This document shows, piece after piece, positions 42,832-46,663 of a stretch of DNA of 64,000 nucleotides (position 1 is its first letter; every line of letters begins with the position of its first letter). The notes under the pieces were generated by a model. The model ran no database searches, was not told the DNA's origin, and saw only the letters and a program-made list of their open reading frames with translations. The position numbers and the translations under genes are program-made. Origin of the DNA: an uncultured Chloroflexia bacterium (GTDB lineage Bacteria > Chloroflexota > Limnocylindria > Limnocylindrales > CSP1-4); NCBI GenBank assembly GCA_963746845.1, contig CAVVCZ010000005.1, positions 384,001 to 448,000 of the forward strand, written 5' to 3'.

Positions 42832-44106
42832 TCAGAGGTTCGGCGAAACGTCGGCCGGGCGATCGTCACGCACGATCCGCCCGCCCTGGAGCACGACGAC
42901 CGGGCGTTCCAGGAGGGTCACGTCGGCCAGCGGATCGCCGTCGACCGCGACGAGATCCGCGAACCGGCCGGCGCCGAGCGACCCCACCCGATCGGACCAG
43001 CCCATCGCGGCGGCGGCCACCGTCGTGGCAGATCGGATCGCGTCCAGCGGCGTCATCCCGGCGCGGACATACGAGGCGAACTGCCCGGCGTTCAGCCCGT
43101 GCGGATAGACGCCGCTGTCCGTGCCGAACGAGATCCGGACACCGGCGGCGATCGCCCTGCGCGCGACGATCTCGGTCGAGTCCTGGGCCTCGCGCATCTT
43201 GCGCATCGTGTCGGCCGGCCAGCCGAGGGGCTCGCCGTGCTCGAGGGCCCACTCGCCGTCGACCAGGTCGCACGTGTAGAACGTGCCCGTGTCGGCGAGC
43301 ATCGCGATCGCCTCGTCATCGAGGAACGAGCCGTGCTCCACGGATCGCGCACCGGCCCGGATCGCCCGCTTCGCGCCCTCGGCGCCGTGGGCGTGGACCG
43401 CGACGAACGCGTCGTAGTAGGCGGCTTCCTCGACGGCCGTCCGGAGCTGCTCCTCGGTGAGCTCGGGGGCGCCCGGCACGCCGCCGCGGGTCAGGATCGC
43501 GCCGGTGCCGATGCACTTGATCAGGTCCGCGCCGCCGATGAGGAGTCGCCGGACCCGGTCGCGCACCTCATCGACGGTCGTGACGACGCCGAACCGGAGA
43601 TCGTCGGGGAGCCGGATGTCCTGCGCCAGGCCGACGACGTCGCCGCCTCCCCAGGGCGACGTGACGAACGCTCCGGCGCACTGCATCCGCGGTCCGACGA
43701 CGTCGCCCCGATCGATGGCGTCGCGCAGCGCGCAGTCCGTGAAGGCCCGGAACGGCCCGAGGTCGCGAACGCTCGTGAACCCGGCCCGGAGCGTCACGCC
43801 CGCGTGCCGGACACCGATGAGCACGTCCTCGGCGGCGGACGTCGTCGTCGCCGGCACGCCGGCCTCCTGGACGTCGCCGACGAGATGGGTGTGGACATCG
43901 ATCAGGCCCGGCAGGACCGTCAGGCCCCCGAGGTCGACGACCACCGCGTCATCGGGGATCCCGTCGCCTGCCCCGGCCTCGGCGATGACACGCCCGTCCG
44001 CCACGTGCAGGACCCGATCTCGGCGGACGGTGCCGGCTTCGACGTCGAGCAGGGCGCCGCAGCGGATCGCCACGGGGCGGCGGGGATCCGGGCCTTGGGC
44101 GGGCAT
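42832..44106 (-). CDS. Metal-dependent amidohydrolase (Xaa-Pro dipeptidase-like)
   Basis: PGLIDVHTH, GFTSVRD, IK, HAHG, EHG, GTDSG; leaderless ATG 7 nt after TACGAT. Confidence 0.93.
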   Translation of the reverse strand: MPAQGPDPRRPVAIRCGALLDVEAGTVRRDRVLHVADGRVIAEAGAGDGIPDDAVVVDLGGLTVLPGLIDVHTHLVGDVQEAGVPATTTSAAEDVLIGVRHAGVTLRAGFTSVRDLGPFRAFTDCALRDAIDRGDVVGPRMQCAGAFVTSPWGGGDVVGLAQDIRLPDDLRFGVVTTVDEVRDRVRRLLIGGADLIKCIGTGAILTRGGVPGAPELTEEQLRTAVEEAAYYDAFVAVHAHGAEGAKRAIRAGARSVEHGSFLDDEAIAMLADTGTFYTCDLVDGEWALEHGEPLGWPADTMRKMREAQDSTEIVARRAIAAGVRISFGTDSGVYPHGLNAGQFASYVRAGMTPLDAIRSATTVAAAAMGWSDRVGSLGAGRFADLVAVDGDPLADVTLLERPVVVLQGGRIVRDDRPADVSPNL

Positions 44107-44130
44107 CGCGGGGATCGTACGACAACCCCC

Positions 44131-44161
44131 TTGACTCTCGACCTGCCCGAGAGTCCACGAT
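44131..44161 (+). promoter_or_regulatory. MerR-type promoter/operator (19-bp spacer with dyad)
   Basis: TTGACT 44131-44136, 19 nt, CACGAT 44156-44161; perfect inverted repeat GACTCTCG (44133-44140) / CGAGAGTC (44148-44155). Confidence 0.88.
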
Positions 44162-44167
44162 GCACCT

Positions 44168-45013
44168 GTGGATGACGACCTGCTGTCGATCGGACGGTTC
44201 GCGAGGCTCGCCGGCCTGAGCGTGGGCGCACTGCGCCACTACGACGAGCTGGACCTGCTCCGCCCGGCCGACATCGACCGCTTCACCGGCTACCGCCACT
44301 ACCGGCGGGCGCAGCTCGAGACCGCGCGGACGATCGCCCGCCTGCGCGACCTCGAGGTGCCGCTCGACGAGATCCGGGAGGTCCTGGCGATGGACGACCC
44401 GGCCGAGCAGCGGCGGCGGCTCGCCGTCCATCGGGCGCGCATCGTCGCCCGCACCGACCGACTGACCCGTCTGCTCCACGTCGTGGGGCGGATGACCGAC
44501 GGAAAGGACCCGATCATGACGAACACCGCAGCCGACCCATCGGCGGCGACCACCGTGGAGCTGGAGGCGGCGACCCACCGCCAGCTCGGGGTCGACCTGT
44601 TCAACAGCACCTGGACGCTCATCGAGCGCCCGGACCGATCGCCGGCTGAGACCGACGAGATGATCCATCGCGCGCACGCCTCGCGCTGGCACTGGGCCCG
44701 CGCTGGCACCACCGTCAACCTGGCCCGCGGCGAGTGGCTGTGCTCGCGTGTCTACGCGACGATCGGCCGCGGCGAGCCCGCCCAGTGGCACGCTCGGCGA
44801 TGTGTCGAGATCACCGAGGCGCTGACGGCCGACGAGCGGGAGAGCTGGGACCTGCCGGCCGCATACGAGGCGATGGCCCGGGCGGCGTTCGTGGGCGGCG
44901 ATGCCGTGACGGGGGCGTTGTGGAAGGGCAAGGCAACGGCCGCGCTCGCGGACATCACGGATGCGGACGATCGGTTGCCGATCGAGGGGGACCTCGCGAC
45001 ATTGCCGGGCTGA
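44168..45013 (+). CDS. MerR family transcriptional regulator with helical C-terminal domain
   Basis: LLSIGRFARLAGLSVGALRHYDELDLL.P..D.FTGYRHY; leaderless GTG. Confidence 0.95.
   Translation: MDDDLLSIGRFARLAGLSVGALRHYDELDLLRPADIDRFTGYRHYRRAQLETARTIARLRDLEVPLDEIREVLAMDDPAEQRRRLAVHRARIVARTDRLTRLLHVVGRMTDGKDPIMTNTAADPSAATTVELEAATHRQLGVDLFNSTWTLIERPDRSPAETDEMIHRAHASRWHWARAGTTVNLARGEWLCSRVYATIGRGEPAQWHARRCVEITEALTADERESWDLPAAYEAMARAAFVGGDAVTGALWKGKATAALADITDADDRLPIEGDLATLPG
44516..45013 (+). CDS. Putative in-frame short isoform (C-terminal domain only) of the MerR gene
   Basis: GGAAAGGA SD at 44501-44508 then in-frame ATG at 44516, at the coiled-coil/effector-domain boundary. Confidence 0.6.
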   Translation: MTNTAADPSAATTVELEAATHRQLGVDLFNSTWTLIERPDRSPAETDEMIHRAHASRWHWARAGTTVNLARGEWLCSRVYATIGRGEPAQWHARRCVEITEALTADERESWDLPAAYEAMARAAFVGGDAVTGALWKGKATAALADITDADDRLPIEGDLATLPG

Positions 45014-45049
45014 CCCTTGGCCCGGTCCGGCCCCAACCACGCCCTGCCC

Positions 45050-45217
45050 ATGCGCCGGGTGCGTCAAACGACGCCCGGCGCATCCGACAAGCGACGAATG
45101 GTGCGTCAGGTGCGTCAAACGGCGGCTGAACGCCCCGATTCGGCCGCCGCCAGGGCTACCCGAGTGCCCTCGCCGGTCGTTTGACGCGCCGCGCGCATGA
45201 ATCGCGATCGACGCACC
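45050..45217. repeat. Intergenic REP-like repeat cluster (GGTGCGTCAAACG)
   Basis: Copies at 45058-45070 and 45109-45121, partial 45100-45108, inverted CGTTTGACGCGCC 45178-45190, inverted partial 45209-45217; hairpin 45050-45083. Confidence 0.7.
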
Positions 45218-45252
45218 GACGGAGTCCAGCGTCGGCGCCCTAGACTCCACGG

Positions 45253-46206
45253 ATGACGCACGTGAAGATCGGGATCAACCTCTGGAGCCAGGCCTCCTCC
45301 TGGCCGGATTTCCTCGCCGCCGCCCAACGCGTGGAACGGCTCGGCTACGACAGCCTGTGGACGTGGGACCACCTCCACGCGATCATCGGCGACCCGCAGC
45401 AGCCGATCTTCGAGGGCTACACGACCCTCGGGGCGTGGGCCATGGCCACCGAGCGCGTGAAGCTCGGGTTGATGGTCGGGGCGAACACCTTCCGCAACCC
45501 GGGGCTCGTCGTGAAGAGCATCACGACCCTCGACCACATCAGCGGCGGCCGGGCGATCCTCGGGATCGGCGGCGCATGGTTCGAGTACGAGCACACCGCG
45601 CACGGGATCGACTTCGGGTCGGGGTTCGGGCAGCGACTCACCTGGCTCGACGAGTCCGTCGCCGCGATGCGGACGCTGCTCGACGGCGGCACCGTGACCT
45701 CGGCGCCGGGCGGCCGGTACCAGTTCGAGGACCTCCACCACGTCCCGGACCCGATCCAGCGTCGCGTCCCGATCATGATCGGCGGCACCGGGCGGACGAA
45801 GACCCTCCGGACGATCGCCCGCTACGGCGACCAGTGGAACGCCGCCGGGACGCCGGAGCTGCTCGCCGAGCTCACGCCGATCCTCGACAGCTATCTCGCC
45901 GGGGAGGGCCGGCCGAAGGATGCGGTGGAGCGCACCTCGAACATCTGGATGGTCATCCGGGATGACGAGCGGGAGGCGCGACGCGTCTGGGACGAGTCGA
46001 TGAGTCTCAACCGCAACGAAGTTGACCTGAAGCTGATCGCCGAGCAACGACCGATGCTCGGCAGCCCGGCGAAGATCGCGGCGCGGATCCAGCAATACGT
46101 CGATGCCGGGTTCCCGACCCAGATCCTCGAGGTGCCGGCGCCATACGACGTGGAGACCTTGGAGCGGCTGATCGGCGAGGTCGTGCCCCTGCTCCACGCC
46201 GGCTGA
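45253..46206 (+). CDS. LLM-class (probably F420-dependent) oxidoreductase
   Basis: GYDSLWTWDH, FRNPG, LDHISGGR.ILGIGGAW, PIMIGG; leaderless ATG 6 nt after TAGACT. Confidence 0.92.
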   Translation: MTHVKIGINLWSQASSWPDFLAAAQRVERLGYDSLWTWDHLHAIIGDPQQPIFEGYTTLGAWAMATERVKLGLMVGANTFRNPGLVVKSITTLDHISGGRAILGIGGAWFEYEHTAHGIDFGSGFGQRLTWLDESVAAMRTLLDGGTVTSAPGGRYQFEDLHHVPDPIQRRVPIMIGGTGRTKTLRTIARYGDQWNAAGTPELLAELTPILDSYLAGEGRPKDAVERTSNIWMVIRDDEREARRVWDESMSLNRNEVDLKLIAEQRPMLGSPAKIAARIQQYVDAGFPTQILEVPAPYDVETLERLIGEVVPLLHAG

Positions 46207-46210
46207 CGCG

Positions 46211-46663
46211 GTGCCCGAGGCCGCGCGATCCCGCTCGATCGGCAGCGCGGTTGGACGGCTGATCGCCGTCTTCGACGATCCGGCGGCGGTCGAGCAGGCT
46301 CGCACAGCGCTGATCGCCGCGGGCATCGCTCCTGCTGCGATCGAGACCTTTGCGGGGCCCGAGGCGGAGGGGGCCTTCGACCCGACTGGCGAACGCCACG
46401 GGATCCTCGGCGTCGCCTACCGGGTCCTCGAGTTCAGCTGGGCCGACCAGGCGCCCGACTTCGCCTGGTACGACGCCGCGATCCGCGAGGGCCGGATCGT
46501 GATGAGCGTCCGGGTCAAGGGCCAGCGGCATGTCGCCCACGCTGCCCGGATCGTCGACGAGCATGGCGGCCACTTCATCAACCACTTCGGCTGGTTCGAG
46601 ACCCAGGAGTTCACGCGGTGGCGCGGGGCGGAGCCGGACGTGCCCGGCTTCCTCAGGCGCTAG
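46211..46663 (+). CDS. Hypothetical protein
   Basis: Follows the LLM gene by 4 nt; LIAVFDD...GGHFINHFG; coding-like. Confidence 0.75.
   Translation: MPEAARSRSIGSAVGRLIAVFDDPAAVEQARTALIAAGIAPAAIETFAGPEAEGAFDPTGERHGILGVAYRVLEFSWADQAPDFAWYDAAIREGRIVMSVRVKGQRHVAHAARIVDEHGGHFINHFGWFETQEFTRWRGAEPDVPGFLRR

Follow-up and report, generated by a model that had tools for sequence, protein, structure and literature searches.

A gene in a 64,000-nt stretch of DNA from an uncultured Chloroflexia bacterium (contig CAVVCZ010000005.1, positions 384,001–448,000; hereafter the window, or locus L001) joins a MerR-type DNA-binding half to a C-terminal tetratricopeptide repeat (TPR) domain, and carries a Shine-Dalgarno (SD) sequence with an in-frame start codon where the two halves meet. 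As judged from aligned relatives, this SD and start at the domain junction are conserved at the nucleotide level over two deep clades, far above chance. Such comparative evidence suggests that a short, TPR-only form is very probably made alongside the full-length protein, and we lean towards viewing the gene as a self-contained, autoregulated MerR circuit, TipA-like with a new effector domain, in which two proteins would come from one reading frame. All positions given below are those of the window, on the forward strand unless stated otherwise.

The internal start codon and its conservation

The long open reading frame (ORF; 44168–45013, 846 nt) encodes 281 residues (31.4 kDa) and begins with a GTG that is the first ATG, GTG or TTG codon downstream of the preceding in-frame stop. 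Its residues 7–74 (44186–44389) correspond to a MerR winged helix-turn-helix (wHTH) DNA-binding domain, matched above cutoff by the Pfam models MerR_1 (E-value 5.7e-14, 52.4 bits for a cutoff of 21.6) and MerR (E-value 4.5e-8, 33.2 bits for a cutoff of 28.2), and the secondary structure predicted by AlphaFold2 (AF2) over residues 1–74 is consistent with a wHTH. On these matches the gene is a MerR-family regulator, as an earlier sequence-only reading of the locus had proposed. A long helix follows (residues 78–110, 44399–44497), modelled by AF2 with a predicted local distance difference test score (pLDDT) of about 90–93 and expected to be the MerR dimerisation coiled coil; the Pfam model MerR-DNA-bind covers residues 54–103 at an E-value of 1.4e-4 and 22.9 bits, under its cutoff of 25.4.

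The four codons immediately C-terminal to this helix (Asp111-Gly-Lys-Asp114) hold the internal SD, GGAAAGGA (44501–44508), which is followed after 7 nt (CCCGATC) by an in-frame ATG at 44516 (Met117). Both elements, and the 165-residue ORF that they open (44516–45013, 17.9 kDa, linker plus TPR domain), are present as the sequence-only reading described them, and Met117 does fall just where that reading placed it, past helix 78–110 and at the beginning of a linker (residues 111–133) that is disordered in the full-length AF2 model, with pLDDT below 50 at residues 119–128. Because the short ORF starts beyond the helix, the predicted short form would lack both DNA binding and dimerisation, like TipAS. 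Confident packing between the wHTH half and the TPR half was not seen in the full-length model (87 sequences, pLDDT 92.6, predicted template modelling score, pTM, 0.57), and a complex prediction with two copies of residues 1–116 plus residues 117–281 scored 0.00 in both runs and is used here neither for nor against binding.

Taken from one sequence, the SD and ATG are not remarkable. The motif GGAAAGGA pairs with the 3' tail of the organism's own 16S rRNA (...GATCACCTCCTTTCT) at 8 positions, 7 of them Watson-Crick and 1 G-U, with a duplex energy of −10.0 kcal/mol. In this genome of 71% G+C, an equal or stronger anti-SD match accompanies 548 out of 12,189 (4.5%) internal in-frame ATG/GTG codons across 1,129 coding-like ORFs, and 36% of these ORFs have at least one such SD-plus-start site in their distal 60%. 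The case thus rests on comparison with relatives.

Two sets of loci were compared. Set A comprises the window locus and 80 loci from public contigs, one per species, which are 56–100% identical and mostly labelled Candidatus Limnocylindrales or Chloroflexota. Set B comprises metagenome loci 44–76% identical to P0131, a relative that is itself 50% identical to the query, and 67 of its 80 loci were usable once the 13 without a single high-scoring segment pair (HSP) over the whole gene had been dropped. An SD was considered strong when its anti-SD duplex reached −8 kcal/mol or lower, and for set A the start had to align to residues 115–126. With these thresholds, a strong SD followed by ATG or GTG was found at the junction in 78/81 set A loci, the exceptions (L059, L107 and L081) having weaker SDs of −7.4, −6.6 and −5.8 kcal/mol, respectively, and a strong SD was likewise kept in 59/67 set B loci. 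A start codon was present in the linker of every locus, either ATG or GTG (30 and 51 of the 81 in set A, 52 and 15 of the 67 in set B). The sequence-only reading had suggested this very comparison, naming an unconserved internal start as the outcome that would speak against it, and the internal start turned out to be conserved.

The signal is also confined in place. When the gene was divided into bins of six residues, the junction bin held it in 71/80 set A loci (runner-up bin 21/80) and the peak bin in 53/67 set B loci (runner-up 12/67); L096, whose HSP ends at residue 245, was left out of the bin plot and retained in the junction count. The SD-to-start spacing in set A ranges from 5 to 11 nt, with a mode of 6–7. 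Across the whole gene, the internal SD is the strongest conserved anti-SD match in an analysis of 16 loci, and the Gly112 codon is the rare GGA in 15 out of 16 orthologues, vs. 9–10% GGA at the remaining glycine codons of these genes (these 16-locus analyses include L007, from the unpublished genome G010, which the main set A and set B counts exclude).

Codon usage at the junction points the same way. Where the start position is a valine codon, it is GTG in 51 out of 51 cases, vs. 315 out of 1,129 (28%) for the other valine codons of the same genes. When synonymous codons were redrawn with the peptide held fixed, SD and start were expected together in 23.8/80 set A and 34.1/67 set B loci, vs. 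78 and 59 observed (L081 was left out of this redraw for the stop codon that it carries in the region considered). The 7-residue peptides bearing the signal are diverse, with 45 distinct ones in set A and 50 in set B. This variation of the peptide, while SD core, spacing and start codon stay, places the signal in the nucleotide sequence and not in the encoded residues.

Several relatives have lost or detached the DNA-binding part. One set A locus (L081, identical to L016 of genome G022) has a TAA at the codon aligned to residue 113, two codons ahead of the internal GTG, so that its MerR half and TPR half are separate ORFs, namely a 112-residue MerR DNA-binding ORF and a 157-residue TPR ORF whose dN/dS against fused relatives is 0.10–0.19. 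In L113 (G113) the HTH is deleted, and an intact promoter, a coiled-coil remnant, GAAAGGAG and the GTG are kept, the latter being the sole start of an intact 156-residue TPR ORF. The HTH region is also deleted in L132 (G084), where the promoter is degenerate and a few of the first codons survive along with the SD, the ATG and a 159-residue ORF, with a second in-frame ATG lacking an SD five codons past the SD-led one. As their sequences read, L113 and L132 are natural short-form-only derivatives. Two further loci (L128 and L133) have the TPR gene directly behind another small gene. The rearranged TPR ORFs show dN/dS values of 0.10–0.42 relative to their nearest fused relatives, which fit with continued constraint, although they are measured over the whole path and not just the part after rearrangement. 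Such repeated survival of the TPR gene without its MerR part suggests that it has a function of its own.

Two other features of these relatives were recorded. Directly upstream of the TPR gene, in one clade comprising L113, L128, L132, L133 and several set B loci, lies the gene of a conserved small helical protein ending in ...SRELDNA, in many cases with a GNAT acetyltransferase-like ORF ahead of it; the window has a divergent amidohydrolase gene instead. Separately, L037 (an orthologue from a long-read metagenome-assembled genome, MAG, otherwise 82% identical) has two adjacent in-frame stops near residues 264–265, suggesting a local indel error or else a frameshift of recent date.

The C-terminal domain and its relatives

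Residues 134–277 (44567–44998) form a TPR-like domain of seven helices, which AF2 models with high confidence when given the domain alone (103 sequences, pLDDT 96.0, pTM 0.89). The domain is confidently a TPR fold, with about three tandem helix-turn-helix repeats that wind into a right-handed superhelix. The best structural matches found by VIA-align are TPR proteins with Z-scores from 17.0 to 12, including BtubC (Z 17.0), two uncharacterised bacterial TPR-like proteins (Z ~15) and PlcR (Z 14.5), a level of similarity that is generic for TPR repeats. The matches listed by Foldseek are mostly TPR or TPR-like as well (best E-value 2.8e-3), with none in the Protein Data Bank (PDB) at an E-value of 1e-3 or lower. 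The three methods therefore agree with the helical, TPR-like domain that the sequence-only reading had described by eye.

Matches to known sequence families are scarce. The 165-residue part has no Pfam or NCBIfam match at an E-value of 1 or lower, TPR_12 matches 24 of 103 relatives without the query being among them, and a sequence-profile search of the PDB built from the 103 relatives returned a generic TPR as its best match (E-value 0.093) and no TipAS or AlbA chain at an E-value of 1 or lower. The nearest ESM Atlas clusters are named “hypothetical” or “tetratricopeptide repeat protein” and share no Pfam family. PADLOC matches are limited to the HTH (mad1, E-value 1.8e-7), with none for the TPR part or for a 150-residue protein encoded farther downstream. 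The domain therefore belongs to a family of small TPR domains that has not been described before. Both effector domains that the sequence-only reading thought unlike this one could be set aside: PF07739, the TipAS domain, has no match at an E-value of 1 or lower to the whole protein or to its 165-residue part, and no TipAS or AlbA chain is among the listed structural matches, while a GyrI-like (BmrR-type) domain has no Pfam match at that threshold and the fold here is all-helical.

Relatives of the domain are numerous, with 1,893 clusters (50%-identity representatives) at an E-value of 1e-3 or lower. The best 150 include 71 stand-alone proteins, 10 with a MerR N-terminus, 17 with another N-terminal extension, 4 with a C-terminal extension and 48 partial sequences. 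The stand-alone homologues that the sequence-only reading suggested looking for are thus abundant, and they begin around the Met117-equivalent position (median 6 residues downstream of it, interquartile range from 9 downstream to 5.5 upstream). The other fusion partners are Glyoxalase_3, HAD, GNAT, DinB_2/MST, AHSA1, Glyoxalase/Ble and, in P0158, an extracytoplasmic function (ECF) sigma factor (r2 + r4).

Within the fused family, invariant residues of the domain are Arg138, Asn146, Trp149, Glu153, Arg157, His170, Ser172, Trp176, Trp190, Arg194, His208, Glu234, Arg238 and Arg269. In the fused-family alignment A3, from which L037, L081 and L096 were left out, conservation of His167, His175 and Cys212 reaches 90% or more, and Cys192 is present in the query as well; in the TipA class, both forms bind the inducing antibiotic, covalently in the case of thiopeptides. 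Fused members occur in Chloroflexota (with Candidatus Limnocylindrales labels) and in Actinomycetota, including cultured Kitasatospora strains (WP_363544499.1), Micromonosporaceae members being known too, and the existing annotation of the family is limited to “MerR family transcriptional regulator” or “hypothetical protein”. Orthologues 56–84% identical and with the same promoter were also seen on eight contigs (L045, L059, L060, L069, L076, L103, L108 and L109) labelled Verrucomicrobiia, Saccharimonadales, Eisenbacteria, Polarisedimenticolia, Methylomirabilota, Binatia, Patescibacteria or Dormiibacterota; these are probably mis-binned Chloroflexota contigs, gene transfer being less likely.

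Promoter, putative operator and neighbouring genes

The gene has what appears to be its own MerR-type promoter. The sequence-only reading overlooked this feature, and also that translation of the long form probably begins without a leader. A −35 hexamer TTGACT (44131–44136) is separated by a 19-nt spacer from a −10-like hexamer CACGAT (44156–44161; A at position 2, T at position 6), and a putative operator made of a perfect inverted repeat, GACTCTCG-N7-CGAGAGTC (44133–44155, arms reverse complements of each other, no strand assigned), lies in this spacer. MerR target promoters are described as having a 19–20 bp spacer that holds a palindromic operator (in the available text of PMC9909328), and the arrangement TTGACT-19 nt-CACGAT shows this same over-long spacer with a palindrome.

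This promoter is widely shared by relatives. TTGACT or TTGACG with exactly 19 nt of spacer and a −10-like hexamer was found in 79/81 set A loci (CACGAT in 61, CAGGAT in 12, CACCAT in 5 and GAGGAT in 1), and a looser promoter pattern fits 61/74 set B loci, where the half-sites differ and are still palindromic. The palindrome is thus kept with clade-specific half-sites, and no conservation was seen among relatives farther upstream. In the window the GTG of the long ORF lies 6 nt past CACGAT, and an in-frame ATG or GTG stands 6–7 nt behind the hexamer in 78 of the 79 set A loci having the promoter. This spacing is too short to accommodate an SD, so that the long form is probably translated from a leaderless mRNA, its GTG sitting at the expected transcription start. 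The operator motif occurs in one place in the 3.56-Mb genome (counted once per strand), and a regulon scan of this 92%-complete genome with the operator pattern returned no target beyond the gene's own promoter.

Upstream, a divergent gene (42832–44106, reverse strand) encodes an amidohydrolase, matched best by NF051886, the Xaa-Pro dipeptidase model of NCBIfam (E-value 1.1e-123, below cutoff). With only 61 nt between its start and that of the MerR gene, the promoters of the two genes must overlap or lie end to end. Relatives do not share this neighbour.

Downstream lies the gene of a luciferase-like oxidoreductase (F420-type luciferase-like monooxygenase, LLM; 45253–46206; Pfam Bac_luciferase E-value 4.8e-45; TIGR03560 E-value 2.6e-59, below cutoff). 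No terminator-like site was found within 43900–45400, and the LLM gene is possibly co-transcribed with the MerR-TPR gene, a weak linkage: it stands directly 3' of that gene in 52/77 set A and 8/50 set B loci. In the main clade of set B, the gene sits between acetyl-CoA-synthetase-like and M16-peptidase-like genes (named by eye from their translations). The neighbours were consequently dropped as a functional clue to the signal, the LLM linkage being confined to set A and the set B context being different; a first neighbour clustering also held spurious GC-rich antisense ORFs, so that its LLM cluster alone is usable.

The 239-nt spacer ahead of the LLM gene (45014–45252) contains a palindromic unit of ~32 nt (core GGTGCGTCAAACG), present twice in direct and once or twice in inverted orientation. 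This unit recurs at 90–97% identity in about eight or more further places of the genome and is found downstream of the gene in 2/79 loci only (the window and L031), and thus looks like a species-specific dispersed repeat similar to repetitive extragenic palindromes or miniature inverted-repeat transposable elements (REP/MITE). Directly past the LLM gene, a 150-residue ORF (46211–46663) has no Pfam, NCBIfam or PADLOC match, and a homologue of it lies downstream in 19/81 related loci.

The proposed circuit, its rivals and known systems

The circuit that we lean towards would operate as follows. A leaderless mRNA would be translated into the 31-kDa long form (wHTH, dimerisation helix, linker and TPR domain), and ribosomes initiating at the internal start would produce an 18-kDa TPR-only protein that neither binds DNA nor joins dimers. 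The long form would sit on the operator and, once the signal is on its TPR domain, activate its own promoter through the spacer distortion typical of MerR proteins, so that both forms rise together. The SD-led short form would bind the same signal, which would be neutralised or buffered as with TipAS and AlbAS; it is quite possible, if a closer call than its synthesis, that the short form titrates or neutralises the signal sensed by the long form by binding to it. With a TPR domain as the sensor, the signal is no less likely to be a peptide or protein than a small molecule. The sequence-only reading had gone further, to a TipAL/TipAS-like sensor-sponge system sequestering a toxin, an antibiotic or a metal: its two-product architecture now has strong comparative support, and its sponge role and class of ligand are inferred. 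An extension that we regard as unlikely is that these are the first MerR regulators to sense a peptide or protein partner by a TPR domain, with a leaderless activator and an SD-led binder whose ratio and set-point would track the translational state of the cell (stress, ribosome-targeting compounds) and not only the concentration of the signal.

Several observations weigh against this circuit. A Gly-Lys-Glu/Asp-type peptide alone keeps the SD score in 45.6/80 set A and 40.4/67 set B loci after the codon redraw, and the compared loci are relatives rather than independent samples, for which reason no p-values are given. SD use in the genome looks weak, with −8 kcal/mol reached by 22% of 623 near-unambiguous starts vs. 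12.6% of internal ATG/GTG codons (a crude estimate made without a gene caller), so that an SD alone is not proof of initiation in this organism. The TAA of L081 was seen in a single MAG and may be an assembly error. The transcription start derives from promoter geometry only, and a simple sigma-70 scan, restricted to spacers of 16–18 nt, reports no promoter. The RNA data amount to two soil metatranscriptome rows with identical data (5% of words each), whose short contigs, from relatives 85–95% alike, cover parts of 44126–44444 and parts of the LLM gene and cannot show starts, ends or strand. Finally, the usual partners of TPR domains are proteins or peptides, and a “sponge” for a toxin or metal agrees less well with this.

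Some of these points lead to other readings of the locus. It is very unlikely that only the full-length protein is made, the purine-rich stretch and its ATG or GTG being kept for the linker peptide, an inter-domain translational pause or mRNA structure. This would fit with how common SD-plus-start sites of equal strength are (4.5% of internal sites, 36% of ORFs), with the weak-looking SD use at real starts and with the large part of the SD score that is set by the Gly/Lys/Glu/Asp peptide. It fits poorly with an SD core, a 5–11 nt spacing and an ATG/GTG kept across 45 and 50 different 7-residue peptides, with GTG at 51/51 valine codons against a 28% background, and with a start codon as such, which a pause signal does not require; moreover, the TPR ORF of L113 has no start other than the internal GTG, and in L132 the SD-led ATG is the first of the two available. 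Less probable still is a short form acting as an anti-activator, which would bind the DNA-binding/coiled-coil part or the TPR domain of the long form without competing for the signal. TPR domains are protein binders, and the effector domain of the TipA class is described as autoinhibiting the DNA-binding part until ligand binds (PMC7762955, in the portion available), which makes a domain-domain contact plausible. Against this stand the lack of confident inter-domain packing across a disordered linker (pTM 0.57) and the stand-alone TPR genes that have no MerR part within 1.5 kb, as these imply a role of the domain in which no long form takes part.

A more serious contender, even if we consider it rather unlikely, accepts both products and makes the TPR-only protein a real working adaptor or binder of a protein or peptide, with the long form as its inducible switch and no sponge for a small ligand. 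Most of the best structural neighbours are TPRs that bind peptides or proteins, stand-alone proteins outnumber MerR fusions 71 to 10 among the best 150 representatives, the DNA-binding part has been lost repeatedly with the TPR ORF intact, and the range of fusion partners, from unrelated enzymes to an ECF sigma factor, points to an interaction module that is portable. In the same vein, the TPR extension of ECF42 sigma factors is thought to act through protein interaction (according to the accessible part of PMC8999054). However, a neighbour conserved in both clades is absent (the LLM gene at 52/77 vs. 8/50 loci, the others being housekeeping-like), and the His, Trp, Arg and Glu residues that hardly vary could just as well form the lining of a site for a small molecule or metal.

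If the two-protein circuit is correct, a sensor-plus-decoy design has evolved, or has been retained, independently of the effector fold, and TPR would join the list of MerR sensor domains. The locus would also offer gene callers a clear case of a conserved internal start missed by current annotation, and an orphan domain family of 1,893 clusters would become approachable via a built-in reporter, the autoregulated promoter. As cultured Kitasatospora strains carry a fused member, the prediction is testable.

Among characterised systems, RRNPP regulators combine an XRE-type HTH with a TPR domain and a cognate secreted signalling peptide. The order of an HTH followed by a TPR sensor is the same here, and PlcR with PapR matches the domain at Z 14.5 (root-mean-square deviation 3.6, 140 aligned), at the generic-TPR level. 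However, the HTH here is MerR-type and the domain has only about three TPR repeats; with this HTH and a match generic for TPR, membership in RRNPP was rejected. No signalling-peptide gene was seen in the ORF list of the window, to which the search was confined. A transcription factor with a C-terminal TPR region is likewise found in ECF42 sigma factors, whose activity is described as depending on this fused extension (PMC8999054, part of the text), and the relative P0158 has the domain fused to sigma r2 + r4; ECF42 differs in being a sigma factor rather than a MerR protein, in its extension of about 200 residues and in having no described two-isoform design. Among MerR sensors, the available text of a 2021 review names metal loops, redox sensors and domains of the GyrI-like or TipAS type, without any occurrence of the term “TPR” (PMC9909328). 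Full-text literature searches returned no MerR-TPR regulator, the co-mentions checked being unrelated, and a search on internal translation, isoforms or leaderless mRNAs of MerR genes returned only irrelevant eukaryotic or virology papers.

Closer parallels come from MerR genes with several products. The nolA gene of Bradyrhizobium, also of the MerR family, is reported to give three proteins from in-frame ATGs (PMC5596368, as far as available). NolA thus resembles the present gene in yielding several products; it differs in having its short forms made under the control of its long form. To our knowledge, NolA has no TPR domain. AlbA of Gram-negative bacteria is described as a self-upregulating, albicidin-binding MerR-family factor accompanied by AlbAS, its ligand-binding domain alone (in the part available of bioRxiv 10.64898/2026.09.21.753095). 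The predicted short protein here would likewise be the ligand-binding domain alone, with a different domain in that role.

The closest likeness is to TipAL/TipAS of Streptomyces lividans, where one autoregulated gene with two start codons is described as giving TipAL and a predominant TipAS, which consists of nothing but the C-terminal effector domain (PMC7762955, partial text). Both genes encode a MerR HTH, a coiled coil (predicted in the present protein) and then an effector domain, in the same order, and the gene studied here has a conserved SD and start exactly past the coiled coil and a 19-nt-spacer promoter of its own. They differ in the effector, which is a TPR fold instead of TipAS, in the apparently leaderless long form and in lineage (Chloroflexota with Actinomycetota members), and the present system is read from sequence alone. 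With no TipAS domain detected, the gene is not a member of the TipA class, even though the two would work alike. One-gene, two-protein MerR circuits are known in few cases (TipA, AlbA, NolA), and here the design appears to recur with an unrelated, TPR-like effector.

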